From a virus (Duplodnaviria; Heunggongvirae; Uroviricota; Caudoviricetes), in the IMG/VR virus record IMGVR_UViG_2703718778_000015: a stretch of 46,799 bases of DNA, one strand, 5' to 3'. The position numbers were made by a program, and so were the translations under genes. Below are positions 5,987 through 41,895 of this stretch, piece by piece. Under the pieces are notes generated by a model. It made no database searches and had not been told where the DNA came from. It saw only the letters and a list, made by a program, of their open reading frames with translations. How positions within the stretch are numbered: position 1 is the first letter of the stretch; every line of letters begins with the position of its first letter.

Positions 5987-6084
5987 GCGTTAGTGTTTTT
6001 TCTGCCCGAGTAACAAAAACAACTCCTTAACATTAATCTTCATTTGTCTGTCCCGCAGCTCCGCGATCACTGCGGGATTTTTTT
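5987..6084 (+). ncRNA. Candidate small RNA of about 100 nt (promoter to intrinsic terminator), no plausible ORF
   Basis: Bounded by the promoter above and the terminator at 6052-6084; the only in-frame start gives a 6-codon ORF; contains a CA-rich stretch (taacaaaaacaactcc). Confidence 0.4.
6052..6084 (+). terminator. Intrinsic terminator on the plus strand
   Basis: cccgcag-ctccgcgatca-ctgcggg followed by attttttt. Confidence 0.6.
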
Positions 6085-25165: not shown

Positions 25166-25296
25166 GGATATTTATCAGGATTTATCGGTTCCGAATCCCT
25201 GGATATGTTAAGCCTTCACCCCACCAGTGGTGGGCACTGGCGGGTTCTTAATTTCCCCGGATGATCGTGGATTACATTCCACCAGGAGATTACTTA

Positions 25297-25928
25297 TGCT
25301 TATCTATCCAGCGGCAGACCTCCGTTTACAGGGACGCAGAGCACAACCATGGGATAAAACAACCACTCATAAATATCGTCCCGGTCAATATTATGACTTT
25401 CGTAAACACCCGGAACTGATCGAGACACACCTTGAGGATTTTGTTGAATATTCAGACAGACAAGCGATTCAGACCTTTTTTTCTTTTGTTAAGTGGATCA
25501 ACAGCAATTCATCTGCATTCGAGAGCACGGACTGCATGTTTTCAGGAACACCAAAGGTTGATGAATACGCCCCGGTATTTGGTTGCACCCATGCGTCATC
25601 TGGCCGCTTCGAATTTTTGTTTCGCGATACGAAAATAAACCAAAATGAGCGAGCTGTCGGATGGGTACTTAACAAACTATCGCTCTACCTTCAGAAAGAA
25701 CGGCCCGATTTTTGTAAAGGAACCTTTGGCATCGTTCCCCTCATGACGGAATATACCGACTCCGGCAGTAACGAGTTCACCGGTTATCGTATTTGTGTCT
25801 ATTTCGATGCTTACGGGAATGGAACAGAGGATACCTGGACTTCTCTCAACATCATGTTTGATGGCCTCATGAAAGCCACCAAAAGAATGAGCAATGAAAC
25901 AATCACTGGCGAGATGCGTCCCCTTTAA
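25297..25928 (+). CDS. Hypothetical protein (about 210 aa), plus strand, in low-GC insertion between S and R
   Basis: Long ORF with AGGAGA RBS 6 nt upstream of the ATG; no recognisable motif; its 3' end overlaps the convergent ORF at 25677-26468 by about 250 bp. Confidence 0.4.
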
Positions 25929-26468
25929 AAAATTATCCAGAATTTCACTATTTGCAGAGCGCTCTCTGTTTTTTTGAATACGGAAACACTCTGCGAGATT
26001 TCTGCTCATCACTTTCCGGCAATAATCGTAAAACGCCGCGAACTGCTCATCACGGCGTTTTTTTTCACCTTCGGAAGGGATCTGCACCGACAGTTTTTTA
26101 TTCAGTTCAACGACGCTGTTCTCCAGTTTTTCAATGCGTGATTCGATATCATCTTTTTCTGACTGTATCGTGTTATATGCATTGTTAATTTGTATGGTAT
26201 ACCGCTCTTCTGAACAAAGGCGCTTTTCCGGCAACGGTTCGTTCCCTTCACATAACCCGGCAGCAATATCCATGAAAAACTGCTTCGCCTTCTTTTTCGC
26301 CTCAGCTTCGTAAAACTCCAGCGGGGCACCTTCAACACGATCAAGATCAATCACCACATTTGGCAACAACAGTGACGTATACCCACCAGTTTCCAGCGCC
26401 ACAGTAACAGTAATCTTATCCGGGTAAATATTTATCCCTTTAACAACCAGTTCGTATTGTTTATTCAT
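25677..26468 (-). CDS. Hypothetical protein (263 aa) immediately downstream of holin S
   Basis: ATG 3 nt after the S stop with a GGGAGAG RBS; predicted coiled-coil centre (IESRIEKLENSVVELNKKL); low-GC region; no recognisable catalytic motif. Confidence 0.5.
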   Translation of the reverse strand: MNKQYELVVKGINIYPDKITVTVALETGGYTSLLLPNVVIDLDRVEGAPLEFYEAEAKKKAKQFFMDIAAGLCEGNEPLPEKRLCSEERYTIQINNAYNTIQSEKDDIESRIEKLENSVVELNKKLSVQIPSEGEKKRRDEQFAAFYDYCRKVMSRNLAECFRIQKNRERSANSEILDNFLKGTHLASDCFIAHSFGGFHEAIKHDVERSPGILCSIPVSIEIDTNTITGELVTAGVGIFRHEGNDAKGSFTKIGPFFLKVER

Positions 26469-27252: not shown

Positions 27253-27270
27253 AGTTTCTTACCGTTATGG

Positions 27271-27299
27271 TTGACAATGAGAACTGTTTTCATTTAAAA
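27271..27299 (+). promoter_or_regulatory. Sigma70-like promoter with perfect -35 (TTGACA, 17-bp spacer, TTAAAA/TAAAAA -10)
   Basis: Direct reading: ttgacaatgagaactgttttcatttaaaaa, in the intergenic gap between nanS-p and the 64-aa ORF. Confidence 0.4.
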
Positions 27300-27305
27300 A
27301 ACCAA

Positions 27306-27387
27306 TGTACGAAAGCATCTTTTCTTTACATTCTCCATTGGGATTACCTCCGCCAGCTTCCGTTCCTGCCGCTGGCGGTTTTTTTTT
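27306..27387 (+). ncRNA. Candidate small RNA of about 80 nt (promoter to intrinsic terminator), antisense orientation relative to the late operon
   Basis: Promoter above plus the terminator at 27349-27387; no ORF in the interval. Confidence 0.35.
27349..27387 (+). terminator. Intrinsic terminator on the plus strand
   Basis: ccgccagc-ttccgttcctgcc-gctggcgg followed by T9; no T-tract on the minus-strand side. Confidence 0.6.
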
Positions 27388-27392
27388 GCCGG

Positions 27393-29372
27393 TTATGCTG
27401 ATGCCCGGCTTTCGTTAACGTTGACAGTGACCGTATCAAGCAGTACCGGATACGTCGCTTTTGTCCCCGTGATATCTGTCAGCGTCAGCGTATCTGCTGT
27501 AAAGCCATCATTTGTCCACATCACAAGGTCAAATGCCGTCTGCTCTGCACCATCAATCACCGGAACAACTCTTTCGCTGTTATTTCCCGCAAAGCGGAAA
27601 ACAACCGTATGCCAGTTATGGTCAAACGTACCAAATGTACCCAGTTGTGCATTCGAGGAGCCCTTCTGGTGCATCAGATTAAGATTTGATGTATCCGTCT
27701 GAAGGAAGAATGATGCCAGCATACTGTTTGCTGTCGCGCCTGACGCCCACTGCGACACCGGCCAGTAGATACCAAAGACAAACTGTCCGTTCACCAGCTC
27801 GCTTCCATCCGGAATTTTGAACCGTACGGCAATTTCCCCCCCCTTGCTGAGAAGATTTTTTGCCTCCTCCACTGCAATAGTACGGAACATTTTCCAGGAC
27901 GTCAGTTTACCGGGCTGTTTTTCCAGTCGCAGCGCTTTCCGTCCACCGTCATCAGTCACAGTGCCTTTGCCGCCGGAAGCGCCCCACTGCTGCTCTGTCA
28001 ATGCACCATTTCCACTGTTCGCATCATATTCAGCCACCGTCCTGGTACTGCTCACGGCCTCATCATGACCAGTACCAGCAACACCGCCATCCTGCGGTTT
28101 CTCAACATCCGGTGTCCCCGGACTGACAGGCGTTGTACCACCCGACTGCGGTGCGCTCTGCCCGGTAAGGAACGATAATGTCCGCCCGGCGTACTGCAAA
28201 ATGGCACCTGCCAGGCGGTCTGAAACAAGGCCTCTTCGCGCCCATGAACTGAAGTGCGTTTTACGATCGGCTGCCGTCCAGTTACTGGCAGTGCGTGACG
28301 CAGCGCCATAGTATCCCGCCGGGATAATGTCCGGATCTTCTGACGGCTCGTTTGTCGGCACATTCACACCATGCTCATCCGTCATCAACGGCACAAAGTG
28401 AATATTCTGCGCAGCTTTTCCTTTATACCCACCGTAAACCGCCTCATACGGCACTGCATACCTTTCCTTCCAGTAGTACGTGGTATCACCGCAAATCCAC
28501 GGGACGCTGGCCGTTGTCCCGCCAGTACACTGCTCTGCCACATCTGCCAGTTCCGTACGGAACTGATTTACCATGGCAAGGAAAAGCGCATTGTGTTCTG
28601 CATGTCTCCCCGAACTGACATCTTTTTCTCCCTGCATCCAGATCACTGATAACAGCACGTTCTTCGGATTTTTCTTCAGGGCCGCACGGGTTCTGCTGAC
28701 CAGGTCATGATACAGCGGTTTATCCGCCCCCCACAGGGACGAGCCTGCGGTCGCTCCCGACGCTTCGTTAAACGCCCCCTCGGCCCCCGCAGTAAATCCC
28801 GAATCGCCACGGCCACATGGAACAAGAAGGATACCCGCATTCGCAGGCATAAACGGCAGCAGCTTTTTGGCAACATGCAGAGCATGCCCCACACAACCGT
28901 ACTGTCCCTTACTCAGGTCTGCATGAGGATGATTCAGGTTACTCATATCCTGCACATCATGCAGACAGTGGTCTGCCGGAATGATGTCGTTATATTTACA
29001 GGCGGCACCACCCGGCGTCACCGTACTGCGACGCGCCAGCTGTTTAATACGCGGGTCCGGACGGTCATATGTCTCCGGCAGCGGCAGCCCTTCACCAAAA
29101 GACATTGAGTTTGACTGCCCCGCCAGAACAACAACAAAGTAATACTCCGGTTCGCTGGTGGTGCTGATAACTGTGCCTTCTCCATCCGACGGCTTCACCA
29201 CCACAGGTGTGGTGACATCACCTTCCGCCGCAATGGCCTGCATCAGGGTATAAGGCGTGATGGCCACCGGGCTGCCAAATGGCTGCCACCCCTCCTTCAG
29301 TTTTTGAGTCAGTCGCTCCGCAAGGTCTGACGGCGACGCCGCCCTGACCACATCGTAGTGTTTAAATGTCAT
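27393..29372 (-). CDS. nanS-p: Sialate O-acetylesterase NanS-p-like protein (prophage-encoded)
   Basis: 659 aa; recognised as the esterase found between stx and the lysis genes in Stx-type prophages. The family call is from memory of those proteins and of the locus position, not a motif scan. Confidence 0.75.
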   Translation of the reverse strand: MTFKHYDVVRAASPSDLAERLTQKLKEGWQPFGSPVAITPYTLMQAIAAEGDVTTPVVVKPSDGEGTVISTTSEPEYYFVVVLAGQSNSMSFGEGLPLPETYDRPDPRIKQLARRSTVTPGGAACKYNDIIPADHCLHDVQDMSNLNHPHADLSKGQYGCVGHALHVAKKLLPFMPANAGILLVPCGRGDSGFTAGAEGAFNEASGATAGSSLWGADKPLYHDLVSRTRAALKKNPKNVLLSVIWMQGEKDVSSGRHAEHNALFLAMVNQFRTELADVAEQCTGGTTASVPWICGDTTYYWKERYAVPYEAVYGGYKGKAAQNIHFVPLMTDEHGVNVPTNEPSEDPDIIPAGYYGAASRTASNWTAADRKTHFSSWARRGLVSDRLAGAILQYAGRTLSFLTGQSAPQSGGTTPVSPGTPDVEKPQDGGVAGTGHDEAVSSTRTVAEYDANSGNGALTEQQWGASGGKGTVTDDGGRKALRLEKQPGKLTSWKMFRTIAVEEAKNLLSKGGEIAVRFKIPDGSELVNGQFVFGIYWPVSQWASGATANSMLASFFLQTDTSNLNLMHQKGSSNAQLGTFGTFDHNWHTVVFRFAGNNSERVVPVIDGAEQTAFDLVMWTNDGFTADTLTLTDITGTKATYPVLLDTVTVNVNESRASA

Positions 29373-29553
29373 GAATCCTCCCGGTCGGGATAATGTTGTG
29401 AGTCAGATAAGGAGCGAGCTGAAGTCCGGAAGTTACAGGACAATGGCAGGAGGAAGACTACAGCCCGCAATACGAAAAAGGCCGCGCAGTTGCGCAGCCT
29501 TATGAATTCTGGTTAAAATCCATTCGATTATAAAAATGTATATCTCATGCTGT

Positions 29554-29580
29554 TGCCCGAACCCACTCGGGCTTTTTTTT
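29554..29580 (+). terminator. Intrinsic terminator on the plus strand, within a cluster of GC-rich stem-loops
   Basis: gcccgaacccactcgggc followed by T8; the adjacent hairpin gcccctccggagaggggc (about 29595-29612) has a U-rich tail on the minus strand, making the pair bidirectional. Confidence 0.5.
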
Positions 29581-29944
29581 GCCCACAAGAAAGCCCCTCC
29601 GGAGAGGGGCTAAAGCCGCGTATCTGTATCATCATGCACATGGTGCCGGGTGCCTCCCGGTGAGTTCAGCCCGGTGCCACTAAACCCGCGTCATTCTCGT
29701 TTTGATAATCAGAGATTATACCGTCACCAGTCGCCCCTCCGCTCAGGGGGATTCACCATGCCAGTTTCTTTTAACAAACTCCCCGCAAACCAGACAACAG
29801 TCAACCGCCTGAATTGTGAGGTATTTAAAAATTTCAACGGGTAACTGATACCCTGCTAATCGCCTGATGCTTTCTTTTTCAGCAACGGGAAAGCAACAAC
29901 CACCACACCCATCAGCCGCCCATTTACCACAAATAAAAAAGCCT

Positions 29945-32797: not shown

Positions 32798-32953
32798 TTA
32801 CTCCTCAGGTTCGTAAACTGTGAAGACAGCGACCTCCGTCTGGCCGGTTCGGATTCGTACCTCGCAGAGGTCTTTCCTCGTTACCAGTGCCGTCACTATG
32901 ACGGTTAAACAGATGACGATCAGGGCGATTAACATCGCCTTTTGCTGCTTCAT
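32798..32953 (-). CDS. hok: Hok-family type I toxin (small membrane peptide)
   Basis: 51 aa, MKQQKAMLIALIVICLTVIVTALVTRKDLCEVRIRTGQTEVAVFTVYEPEE, one residue from HokD/RelF as remembered; strong AAGGAGAAG RBS. Confidence 0.9.
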   Translation of the reverse strand: MKQQKAMLIALIVICLTVIVTALVTRKDLCEVRIRTGQTEVAVFTVYEPEE

Positions 32954-33244
32954 AGCCTGCTTCTCCTTGCCTTTCGGCACGTAAGAGGCTAACCTAGATT
33001 TGCCGTTCATAGATTGAGCCTCAGATTAATGTTAAGCGTCTTGCAGGACGCGTAATGTTAACTGGGGCTTTTCTCTATCTGCCTTTTGGTATTCATGCCT
33101 GAGACAGATAGCCTCAAGCACCCGCAGCAATTCTACTTAACTATCCTTTCCCCGCAAATCGTTTTTATCCCCAGCGACAAATCGAATACACCACCAGCGC
33201 CACCGCCATTGCGATCCCTACCGTTGTGAATGCCTCAGGCCAGG

Positions 33245-37463: not shown

Positions 37464-38385
37464 AAGCTCCCACAGCTTCCAGGCCGTTTCCGTTGCTGAT
37501 AAATCCGTTTTCACGTTCCCACTGTTCGCGTGCTGCCCGGATTTCCTGAACTGCCCGTGATGCCGTGCCACCTGATGCTGCATGGCTTACCCCCTTGCTG
37601 ACTGGTTTTGCCTGTGCCCTGACGTGCTGCACGTGGCGGGCAAATTTCTGCTCCCACTGAACCTGCGTGAAAACCTTCCCCTCCGCCATCCAGTAATCCC
37701 GGAATGCGGCAAGCTCTGCAGGTGTAAATTCCGGCTCAGGCAGAGCCATACCCCACACAGCTGCCCGTTGTCGAAAATCCGGCGACGGCTGCCAGACAGT
37801 GGTCATCGAAAATTTCCCGATCGGTTCGCTCAGGCCGTCCAGGTATTCAGGTTCGGCTGTCTGCAACGGCGCACCATGCGACTCACTGGTAGGAATACTC
37901 TCGCGTTCACGCACGTTATGTGTGGGGTTTAATTCTTTTAGATCTGTATCTTTATTAGTTGCTTTTGTGTTTGCGTCATGTTCAAACACAACACCAACAT
38001 TTGTTTGAACACCTGTTAAATCTCTCTCTTGTTTTGTTTGAACATATGCTTCCTTTCTGCTTCTTCTGGCCTGAACAGATGCTTTTCCGGCGGCTGATTT
38101 TTTGGTCAATTTTTCCCTGACTGATGCCAGATCTTCCTCAATCCGAAGATGCACCCATTCATCGCCGTTATCGCAAAAAAACTCCCGCAAGGATGGTTCC
38201 ACATCAGCCCATCGCTCGTTAGTCAGACGGGAAATTTTTGCCAGCCTGTTTTTAGGTATTGGTTTCCCTGTTTGCCAGTAATTGAACATCAGCAACAAAT
38301 ACGCACCGTGCTCCTCTGCGGACAAATGCATGGTGTCAGCCAGGTAATCAGCTATGTACAGTTGCATGTATGGTAATGCGGCCAT
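37375..38385 (-). CDS. Replication initiation protein (O-like position; YdaU/DUF1376-like N-terminal domain)
   Basis: 337 aa from the internal Met (MAALPYMQLYIADYLADT...EEHGAYLLLMFNYW); lies between the YdaT-like and P-like genes. Confidence 0.55.
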   Translation of the reverse strand: MAALPYMQLYIADYLADTMHLSAEEHGAYLLLMFNYWQTGKPIPKNRLAKISRLTNERWADVEPSLREFFCDNGDEWVHLRIEEDLASVREKLTKKSAAGKASVQARRSRKEAYVQTKQERDLTGVQTNVGVVFEHDANTKATNKDTDLKELNPTHNVRERESIPTSESHGAPLQTAEPEYLDGLSEPIGKFSMTTVWQPSPDFRQRAAVWGMALPEPEFTPAELAAFRDYWMAEGKVFTQVQWEQKFARHVQHVRAQAKPVSKGVSHAASGGTASRAVQEIRAAREQWERENGFISNGNGLEAVGAYGGGVFEPLDSEERGRTFEALDCPDWCDD

Positions 38386-41387: not shown

Positions 41388-41895
41388 TGCTTAATGAATC
41401 CTTAAAACTGTGGTGATTTTAAGGATACCACCTCGCCTGACGTGGTTAAAAGCAGGCACACAACACGAAAGCGCACGGCGAGGTTTCTGGTTCATAGATG
41501 GCTTGTCGTTAAATTTTCGTCGACCGTGCGCTCCCGGTTGTGGCAATCCGCGAAACGGCGCGGCGGTAAGTATGGCGGGGGTACTCTTCTCCCCCTGTGG
41601 AGCACCGGGTTGTCAGGTTGACCATACGCTTAAGAGACAACCACGCTGCAACGCCCTCTGTTATCCATTTTCTGGTGACGTTTGGCGGTATCAGTTTTAC
41701 TCCGTGACTGCTCTGCCGCCCTTTTTAAAGTGAATTTTGTGATGTGGTGAATGCGGCTGAGCGCACGCGGAACAGTTAAAACCAAAAACAGTGTTATGGG
41801 TGGATTCTCTGTATCCGGCGTTAATTGTTAACTGGTTAACGTCACCTGGAGGCACCAGGCACCGCATCACAAAATTCATTGTTGAGGACGCGATA

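Follow-up and report, generated by a model that had tools for sequence, protein, structure and literature searches.

In lambdoid prophages, two small RNAs (sRNAs), PasA and PasC, have the sialic acid esterase gene on one side and the holin/lysozyme operon on the other (Zhu, Shabalina and Storz, bioRxiv 2026), and both are Northern-verified and Hfq-stabilised in enteropathogenic Escherichia coli (EPEC) E2348/69 (Pearl Mizrahi et al. 2021, PMC8550237). Table S6 of the latter study places PasA at NC_011601.1 743499..743415 (minus strand, 85 nt) and PasC at NC_011601.1 1290909..1290832 (minus strand, 79 nt), gives their orientation as '> < >', and names the O157 Sakai homologues EcOnc51 and EcOnc52. 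Another sRNA of O157 Sakai, EcOnc33, was recovered in five of five Hfq-CRAC (crosslinking and analysis of cDNA) data sets and yielded a Northern band of ~71 nt (Tree 2014, Waters 2017). Esr41 (RF02676, also EcOnc14), an Hfq-dependent sRNA from the SpLE1/OI-43 island of enterohaemorrhagic E. coli (EHEC), is associated with Hfq and RNase E, represses cirA, chuA and bfr, confers resistance to colicins Ia and Ib, raises motility and lowers expression of the enterocyte effacement locus (LEE). Here we describe the 140-bp gap at positions 27253-27392 of a 46,799-nt stretch of Caudoviricetes DNA (IMG/VR record IMGVR_UViG_2703718778_000015, hereafter the window), which, by analogy with these RNAs, very likely encodes an unannotated, trans-acting regulatory sRNA of ~80 nt related to Esr41.

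As the first-pass annotation of this DNA had stated, the gap separates two minus-strand open reading frames (ORFs; Table 1), and in a RefSeq locus with a 100% identical gap (140 bp) the successive genes are annotated as SASA esterase, DUF1378, DUF826, class II holin and lysozyme. The candidate RNA thus lies between the SASA esterase and the holin/lysozyme operon and is antisense to both, as are PasA and PasC. In the loci that we fetched for comparison (numbered with an L below), prophage PP2 of E2348/69 and Sp12 of Sakai were seen to carry two tandem modules in this slot, in each of which TTGACA is followed by an A-rich -10 and a terminator, and the terminator T-run abuts the esterase stop codon in PasC and in the esterase-proximal module (EcOnc52 type), as it does in the window. 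The gap between the esterase and DUF1378 genes of Sakai Sp6 reads TTGACA-N18-TAAAAA, followed by GCCGCCGG..CCGGCGGCC and T7, and proved to be EcOnc33 once an offset of ~+128 nt between genome versions was corrected; RNase E-CLASH (hybrids sequenced after crosslinking and ligation) reads assigned to EcOnc33 (CCTGCATGTTTTGCTTTGGAT and CCTGCCCCGGCGGCCTTT) match the RNA strand of this gap exactly. Since PasA and PasC in EPEC and EcOnc33 in Sakai are backed by such data, the slot between esterase and lysis genes and the antisense orientation have experimental support in two pathotypes. The first-pass annotation had proposed a comparison with sRNAs of Stx-type prophages; slot and orientation agree with PasA, PasC, EcOnc33, EcOnc51 and EcOnc52, all supported by Northern blotting or by Hfq-CRAC/CLASH.

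Nevertheless, the window RNA is not PasA, PasC or EcOnc52. By the similarity criterion of Zhu et al. (a blastn match over >75% of the query), neither PasA, PasC nor the second module matched the gaps of the two allele classes that we call A and B; our family model R1 (see below) reached only E >= 1.5 at the PasA, PasC and second-module loci, and the PasA seed GCCAGCACCU is absent from 27306-27387.

The plus strand of the gap carries a perfect -35 hexamer 18 nt from the DUF1378 start codon, which lies on the opposite strand. The first-pass annotation had combined this TTGACA with a TTAAAA 17 nt further on (27294-27299), and both hexamers are indeed present. However, TTAAAA matches TATAAT at three of six positions and the overlapping TAAAAA at four of six, and comparison with 14 other alleles and relatives placed the conserved -10 register one base to the right, making TAAAAA with an 18-nt spacer the likelier arrangement. 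TTGAC was invariant in 23 of 23 aligned members of the Esr41-like family and none of the 15 allele and relative classes compared lacked it, Esr41, PasA, PasC, EcOnc52 and EcOnc33 being among them. Same-slot alleles with unrelated spacers and bodies carried TAAAAA or a near variant 17-18 nt from TTGAC, and only looser A-rich or AT-rich -10 hexamers were seen in Esr41 and in the PasA, PasC and second-module alleles of E2348/69. The pattern TTGAC-N18/19-TAAAAA occurs once on both strands of the 46.8-kb window, against 0.02 occurrences expected from shuffles. From these elements we infer transcription of the window allele. The spacer itself (27276-27294, plus strand) holds an imperfect inverted repeat, AATGAGAA-CTG-TTTTCATT, that is complementary at 7 of 8 positions and is conserved in classes A, B and L071; judged from its sequence, it may serve as an operator. 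The overlapping segment 27273-27291 shares, by our own count, 12 of 19 positions with the 19-mer consensus of the Fur box, a likeness for which no support was found in the literature.

A GC-rich hairpin followed by T9 was likewise confirmed downstream, although it begins 50 nt after the -10 hexamer and not ~55 nt as first proposed. Its arms, CCGCCAGC (27350-57) and GCTGGCGG (27371-78, in DNA letters), enclose a 13-nt loop and form a stem of 8 bp, of which 7 are G-C pairs, directly followed by the U-tract, i.e., the layout of an intrinsic terminator. The hairpin energy (-15.3 kcal/mol) is close to those of Esr41 (-13.9 kcal/mol) and PasA (-16.3 kcal/mol). On the late strand the same hairpin reaches -18.2 kcal/mol, but there A9 precedes it and AGGUAAUCCC follows, so that, as the first-pass annotation had noted, a U-tract is absent and the hairpin cannot terminate late transcription. 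In every allele a T-run of 5-9 on the sRNA strand abuts the esterase stop codon. Because the U-tract is always found on the plus strand, and because the G.U pairs of the L086 and Esr41 stems would become C.A mismatches if read on the opposite strand, the RNA was assigned to the plus strand. The outer seven terminator pairs are invariant in the alignable Esr41-like family, and the eighth is C-G in classes A and B, U-A in L071 and L072, and U.G in L086.

The ends of the RNA can be predicted from its relatives. The 5' ends of Esr41 (from the start of the Rfam model and the expression construct of Waters et al.) and of PasA and PasC (from Table S6 of PMC8550237, based on RNA-seq coverage and Northern size) all follow the -35 hexamer at a distance of 30 nt, and the identical spacing holds for a segment of an EcOnc33 CLASH read that begins CCTGCATG. 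Applying these 30 nt to the window puts +1 at 27306 (27305-27307) and the product at ~80 nt. The family model R1 covers 27304-27386 and the Rfam Esr41 model 27312-27386. In the minimum free energy (MFE) fold of 27304-27387 (-20.7 kcal/mol), a weak 5' stem-loop with pairs within 27304-27332 is followed by a largely unpaired seed region and the terminator.

The body of the RNA points to Esr41. At gathering thresholds, Rfam gave no match within the gap 27253-27392, so the scan suggested in the first-pass annotation was fruitful only in permissive mode, where the best match was Esr41 (RF02676) with full coverage of model positions 1-74 (23.0 bits, E 0.065); class B relatives such as L036 and L086 scored 30.9 and 29.8 bits. 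Weaker matches to PrrF, RybB and SAM-SAH (E 1.2-2.8) were terminator-driven and were set aside. In the reverse direction, a covariance model built from 18 same-slot sequences with Esr41 left out (R1) found the Esr41 locus at the exact place (L003 2992-3074, 25.8 bits, E 7.8e-4, a rough E-value given the 90-kb search space). In alignment A1, Esr41 and the window family share ACAUU(UU)CUCCAU(G)GGG(U)AUU(C)CCUCCGCC(G/A)GC and GCUGGCG-U7-9, and the Esr41 5' hairpin GAUGC..GCAUC aligns with GAUGU-ACGAAAG-CAUC of L032 and L063, ACGAAAG being common to classes A and B. CCAU is invariant in the family alignment, and UCUCCAU is common to classes A and B, L073 and Esr41. Reciprocal homology to Esr41 was thus found independently, through both the R1 match and alignment A1, and by its sequence the window RNA is a distant Esr41 homologue that falls outside RF02676 by the Rfam threshold.

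Esr41 itself adjoins iha in SpLE1/OI-43, and its flanks showed no homology to the phage region except for insertion sequence (IS) elements and a similarity between iha and cirA; flank homology was accordingly dropped as a demonstration of relocation. The iha segment in question (L003 582-672) is 79% identical in nucleotide sequence to part of cirA (L089 3295-3385), the mRNA of which is repressed by Esr41. Esr41 looks like an isolated copy of the cassette family to which the window RNA belongs. Matches to the Esr41 model are frequent near PasD (Zhu et al., bioRxiv 2026), and no mention of Esr41 homologues or EcOnc33 was found in the main texts of the literature searched.

The likeness to Esr41 extends to the predicted targets. 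A published Esr41-chuA CLASH chimera (AGGCATCACATTTTCTCCATGGGGTA joined to ATTTTCCTCATGGAGAATCGCTATGT) defines the seed and, on the mRNA side, the motif CCUCAUGGAGAA, found again at the Shine-Dalgarno sequence of cirA (UUACCUCAUGGAGAUAUGGAAUG). Predicted duplex energies for the window seed were -17.6 kcal/mol at the chuA site and -18.0 kcal/mol at the Shine-Dalgarno region of cirA (-20.2 and -25.8 kcal/mol, respectively, for Esr41), and shuffled seeds did as well in 0 of 300 cases for chuA and 2 of 300 for cirA. The pairing with CCUCAUGGAGA(A/U) that characterises the Esr41 seed was predicted in silico for both mRNAs. Within 12 kb of K-12 DNA, scored as 1,588 windows, the initiation region of cirA took second place with the window RNA and first place with class B. 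EcOnc33 and PasA, which occupy the same slot and are unrelated, paired with the chuA and cirA sites no better than shuffles. Pairing of the window RNA with bfr was also at shuffle level, as it was for Esr41 with the same crude method, and bfr was not retained as a target.

Anchoring the comparison on the window esterase, we fetched 80 IMG/VR loci with esterases 58-100% identical to it and read the sequence downstream of the esterase stop, alleles being compared for those loci that held enough of it. All of these except L008 and L010 showed TTGAC(A/T/G), a TAAAAA-like hexamer 17-18 nt on, and a GC hairpin with T5-9 beside the esterase stop, around a spacer and a 55-110-nt body that fell into at least 10 classes not alignable with one another. 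Since so many unalignable classes share both ends, promoter and terminator appear to be conserved as features while the sequence between them is replaced, and blastn of the flanks showed mosaic breakpoints at the cassette edges (e.g., the L036 alignment ends at 27386). The gap conforms to the EcOnc33 layout in each respect: TTGAC-N17/18-TAAAAA, ~30 nt from -35 to +1, a variable body, and a GC hairpin with T-run at the esterase stop on the antisense strand. The L008/L010 allele combines an esterase 97% identical to that of the window with a different body, and its -35-like TTGAAA lies only 7 nt from TAAAAA; judged by sequence, the promoter spacer seems to have suffered a deletion, and the copy may be dead.

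A search at 92-100% identity located the 140-bp gap 439 times, spread over 306 of 5,426 complete E. coli genomes; carriers include O104:H4 2011C-3493 (NC_018658.1 2549391-2549524, 96% identical), CP55_Sichuan (NZ_CP053731, gap 100% identical) and isolates that their depositors label as uropathogenic (UPEC), and the gap is unannotated everywhere among the matches listed. It also occurs in 10 GenBank phages, some of them Shiga toxin 1 (Stx1)-converting, and the combined seed and terminator-arm motif is present in at least 120 IMG/VR contigs. Seed and terminator patterns were scanned twice against the species-representative genomes and matched none of them; the family therefore appears to be absent from representative genomes and confined to accessory prophages.

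Taken together, we consider it probable that the gap is an independent plus-strand sRNA gene, i.e., an Esr41-homologous cassette allele whose product would act in trans and in an Hfq-dependent manner in the lysogen. In this scheme, a sigma-70-type promoter (TTGACA-18-TAAAAA) would start plus-strand transcription near 27306, antisense to the phage late operon, and the intrinsic terminator (8-bp GC stem plus U9) would stop it 5 nt before the esterase stop codon, releasing the ~80-nt product. The gene would be one allele of a mosaic sRNA cassette between the sialate esterase and lysis genes of lambdoid prophages, of which PasA, PasC, EcOnc33, EcOnc51 and EcOnc52 would be others. By analogy with Esr41, its RNA would most likely be an Hfq-dependent base-pairing regulator, and the single-stranded seed AUUCUCCAU would pair over the Shine-Dalgarno sequences of iron-uptake receptor mRNAs (cirA, chuA) and repress them, the type of repression that in the case of Esr41 leads to colicin Ia/Ib resistance; Hfq dependence and targets we infer from this likeness and from the predicted complementarity. 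The antisense-oriented non-coding RNA of ~80 nt with its own promoter and terminator that the first-pass annotation had postulated is thereby supported, at the level of sequence, by the same-slot sRNAs, the conserved elements and the Esr41-homologous body.

A number of observations weigh against this interpretation. The -10 hexamer is weak and has lost the conserved final T, a generic promoter scan did not list the TTGACA site (which it missed because of that weak -10), the L008/L010 allele has no correctly spaced -35, so that the promoter is not universal, and expression of the window allele rests on analogy, the Sakai CLASH reads in the supplements containing no class A or class B sequence. 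The score of 23.0 bits falls short of the RF02676 gathering score of 102 bits, and the E-values are borderline. The fold has a z-score of only -2.2, and the reverse strand folds equally well, so that folding energy does not discriminate between strands; covariation in the terminator gives minimal support, with 0 compensatory pairs in the alignable Esr41-like family, and is uninformative because the outer seven base pairs are invariant there. Finally, the seed core, as an anti-Shine-Dalgarno motif, would find matches in many mRNAs, the background for the target ranking amounted to only 12 kb, and the duplex energies ignore accessibility.

An alternative that we regard as unlikely is an element that acts mainly in cis on the late transcript. 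Its hairpin might be a 3' stabiliser or processing site of the esterase mRNA, or the RNA might be a true antisense RNA that pairs with the late mRNA between esterase and DUF1378 (e.g., provoking RNase III cleavage, or through transcriptional interference) and so uncouples esterase expression from lysis-gene expression. The RNA would be complementary to the late mRNA along the whole of 27306-27387, on the late strand the hairpin forms as well and lies directly after the esterase stop in every allele, the promoter is near the DUF1378 start codon, and the partners of PasA in RIL-seq (in which interacting RNAs are ligated and sequenced) include the neighbouring esterase gene E2348C_0688 (PMC8550237). 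However, termination on the late strand is precluded by the missing U-tract, and over 50 nt separate the end of the complementary stretch from the DUF1378 start downstream of it, leaving the ribosome-binding site uncovered. Moreover, many trans targets are on record for Esr41 and the sister alleles, the locus from which Esr41 functions has neither esterase nor late operon, and the free exchange of bodies among alleles fits diversification of trans-acting seeds. A role in cis would in any case be compatible with the trans-acting sRNA that we favour.

Less probable still is that the gap yields no functional RNA, being a decayed or silent cassette copy or a set of chance motifs with negligible transcription from the weak -10. 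The 4/6 match to TATAAT, the generic scan (which returned fewer sites than shuffles in this region), the reliance on analogy for expression and the evident loss of promoter spacing in L008/L010 could all be read that way. Yet the same weak -10 is found in EcOnc33, one of the most abundant orphan sRNAs bound to Hfq in Sakai, and -35, -10 and terminator are conserved while spacers and bodies diverge, which makes a silent copy unlikely; nor do the chance expectation of the promoter pattern and the maintenance of the allele across so many genomes suit decay.

The first-pass annotation had seen no plus-strand ORF here, whereas the mechanical ORF list holds two that overlap the gap (27267..27401, 44 aa, and 27305..27418, 37 aa), but a small protein can be practically dismissed, since both read across the terminator hairpin and U-run into the esterase gene and both lose their ATG in close variants (CCGATATACG, ATTGTTGACAATAAG; ATG 27305 is ATA in many class A variants, and ATG 27267 is ATT in class B, followed by TAA), and neither ATG is preceded by a Shine-Dalgarno sequence.

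With the trans-acting sRNA as the preferred explanation, a broader proposal can tentatively be made: the junction of esterase and lysis genes in lambdoid prophages may be a dedicated hypervariable sRNA cassette, in which fixed frames (the promoter TTGACA-N18-TAAAAA and the terminator abutting the esterase stop codon) hold freely exchanged seed bodies of at least 10 unrelated types, with Esr41 as a copy escaped from one of the allele families, and in which the class A and B alleles would down-regulate CirA and ChuA. If so, cirA would be engaged at two sites, by UCUCCAU on the Shine-Dalgarno sequence and by GUACGAAAG at +17..+25, and phage-borne resistance to colicins and microcins together with retuned iron uptake would be carried by ~6% of complete E. 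coli genomes, non-EHEC ones included. The literature treats Esr41 as EHEC-specific and bound to one island, and PasA/PasC as a separate family; the window allele links both by putting, in ordinary lambdoid prophages, a seed and a terminator of the Esr41 type into the slot of PasA, PasC and EcOnc33. Should it be expressed and repress cirA and chuA, many non-EHEC lysogens would carry an unannotated, phage-borne control of iron and colicin receptors. For this prophage region, sRNA genes could be annotated by one rule, namely TTGAC-N17/18-TAAAAA followed by a hairpin with T-run next to the stop codon of the esterase.

Table 1. Coordinates of the predicted sRNA gene, its elements and the flanking genes in the window
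Feature	Position	Strand	Basis or remark
-35 hexamer TTGACA of the sRNA promoter	27271..27276	+	Sequence; conservation across alleles
-10-like hexamer TAAAAA, 18-nt spacer	27295..27300	+	Conserved register across alleles
Predicted sRNA, ~80 nt, +1 at 27305-27307, 3' end within the U-run	27306..27387	+	-35-to-+1 spacing; model coverage
5' motif GUACGAAAG	27307..27315	+	Perfectly complementary to cirA codons +17..+25 (duplex prediction); in the weak 5' stem-loop
Putative seed AUUCUCCAUUGGGA, core UCUCCAU 27332-27338	27330..27343	+	Homologous to Esr41 seed UUUCUCCAUGGGGU
Intrinsic terminator hairpin CCGCCAGC / 13-nt loop / GCUGGCGG	27350..27378	+	Fold, -15.3 kcal/mol
U9 tract, terminator tail and likely Hfq-binding 3' end	27379..27387	+	Ends 5 nt before the esterase stop codon (other strand)
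Flanking gene, DUF1378 protein, 64 aa	27058..27252	-	Pfam DUF1378, E 2.7e-34
Flanking gene, SASA-family sialate O-acetylesterase (nanS-p type), 659 aa	27393..29372	-	Pfam DUF1737 + SASA + DUF6645; convergent with the sRNA

In addition to the candidate, at least five known sRNA genes are present in the prophage of the window. Positions 6002-6084 (plus strand) correspond to PasB, which is Northern-verified and Hfq-dependent in EPEC E2348/69 and whose published probe is found exactly, as reverse complement, at 6057-6079; R1 also matches this locus (6008-6084, 25.8 bits) through its terminator, and it is probably the candidate labelled 'I-J' in the first-pass annotation. AsxR (29525-29577, plus strand) scored 63.0 bits, exactly the gathering score, and is convergent with STnc100, a relative of PasD (29581-29790, minus strand, 152 bits), the pair lying upstream of the esterase. 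This matches the PR' 'moron site' arrangement reported by Tree et al. 2014, save that no stx genes intervene here. Four tandem STnc100 copies (77-142 bits each) were seen upstream of the esterase in L071 (1792-2773) and L033 (1680-2795, plus strand). Rfam further placed the sok antitoxin RNA at 32948-33123 (minus strand, 112 bits) and DicF at 41670-41721 (plus strand, 76.7 bits), and a weak R1 match at 38033-38103 (plus strand, 16.3 bits, E 0.13) ends in a T run (GGCGGCTGATTTTTT). Between holin and lysozyme, the DUF1327 (YdfR) gene (25677-26468, minus strand) is extended to 263 aa, of which Pfam covers only residues 1-96, and the gene is overlapped on the opposite strand by an ORF of 233 aa with no Pfam match (25227-25928, plus strand); a truncated YdfR gene is all that is found at this place in the RefSeq locus whose sRNA gap is identical.

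The window RNA belongs to a described class of sRNAs and is not a new kind of element, and the gain is incremental, as class and mechanism are already established. The AsxR/AgvB anti-sRNAs of the PR' moron site are likewise prophage-encoded, Hfq-binding and convergent with the late operon, but they are 51-60 nt long with a conserved 3' end of 42 nt, lie upstream and not downstream of the esterase, act as sponges of core sRNAs, and have no sequence similarity to the window RNA. PasA/PasC and EcOnc51/EcOnc52 share with it the slot from esterase to holin/lysis genes, the antisense orientation, the TTGACA -35, the -35-to-+1 spacing and a similar size (79-85 nt), and PasC and EcOnc52 also the T-run abutting the esterase stop codon. 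Their bodies, however, are without detectable similarity, the PasA seed GCCAGCACCU lies within a terminator arm, and E2348/69 PP2 and Sakai Sp12 hold two modules in a 448-bp gap that lacks DUF1378, as opposed to one module in 140 bp.

EcOnc33, which is associated with Hfq and RNase E, comes closer in layout, with the identical gap (esterase to DUF1378) and strand, TTGACA-N18-TAAAAA, an RNA start at equal spacing (from the CLASH read start), and a GC hairpin with U7 beside the esterase stop, but its body (CCUGCAUGUUUUGCUUUGGAUAUAACG...) is unrelated, its terminator (GCCGCCGG/CCGGCGGC) has a 24-nt loop, and it shows no complementarity to cirA or chuA. Esr41, finally, is experimentally verified where the window RNA is predicted, and lies beside iha in a tellurite-resistance island without esterase or lysis genes, as against the lambdoid late region of the window; the two differ in their 5' 25 nt and terminator loop, and the window seed has U for G and two U's fewer. 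Both nevertheless span ~75-80 nt, place TTGACA 30 nt ahead of +1, have a 5' hairpin region (which in several alleles reads GAUG...CAUC) and a seed, ..UUCUCCAU.GGG.AUU.CC, that is single-stranded, and share a near-identical terminator, CCGCC(A/G)GC...GCUGGCG followed by U7-9; they are joined by reciprocal model matches and by predicted pairing at the same chuA and cirA sites.

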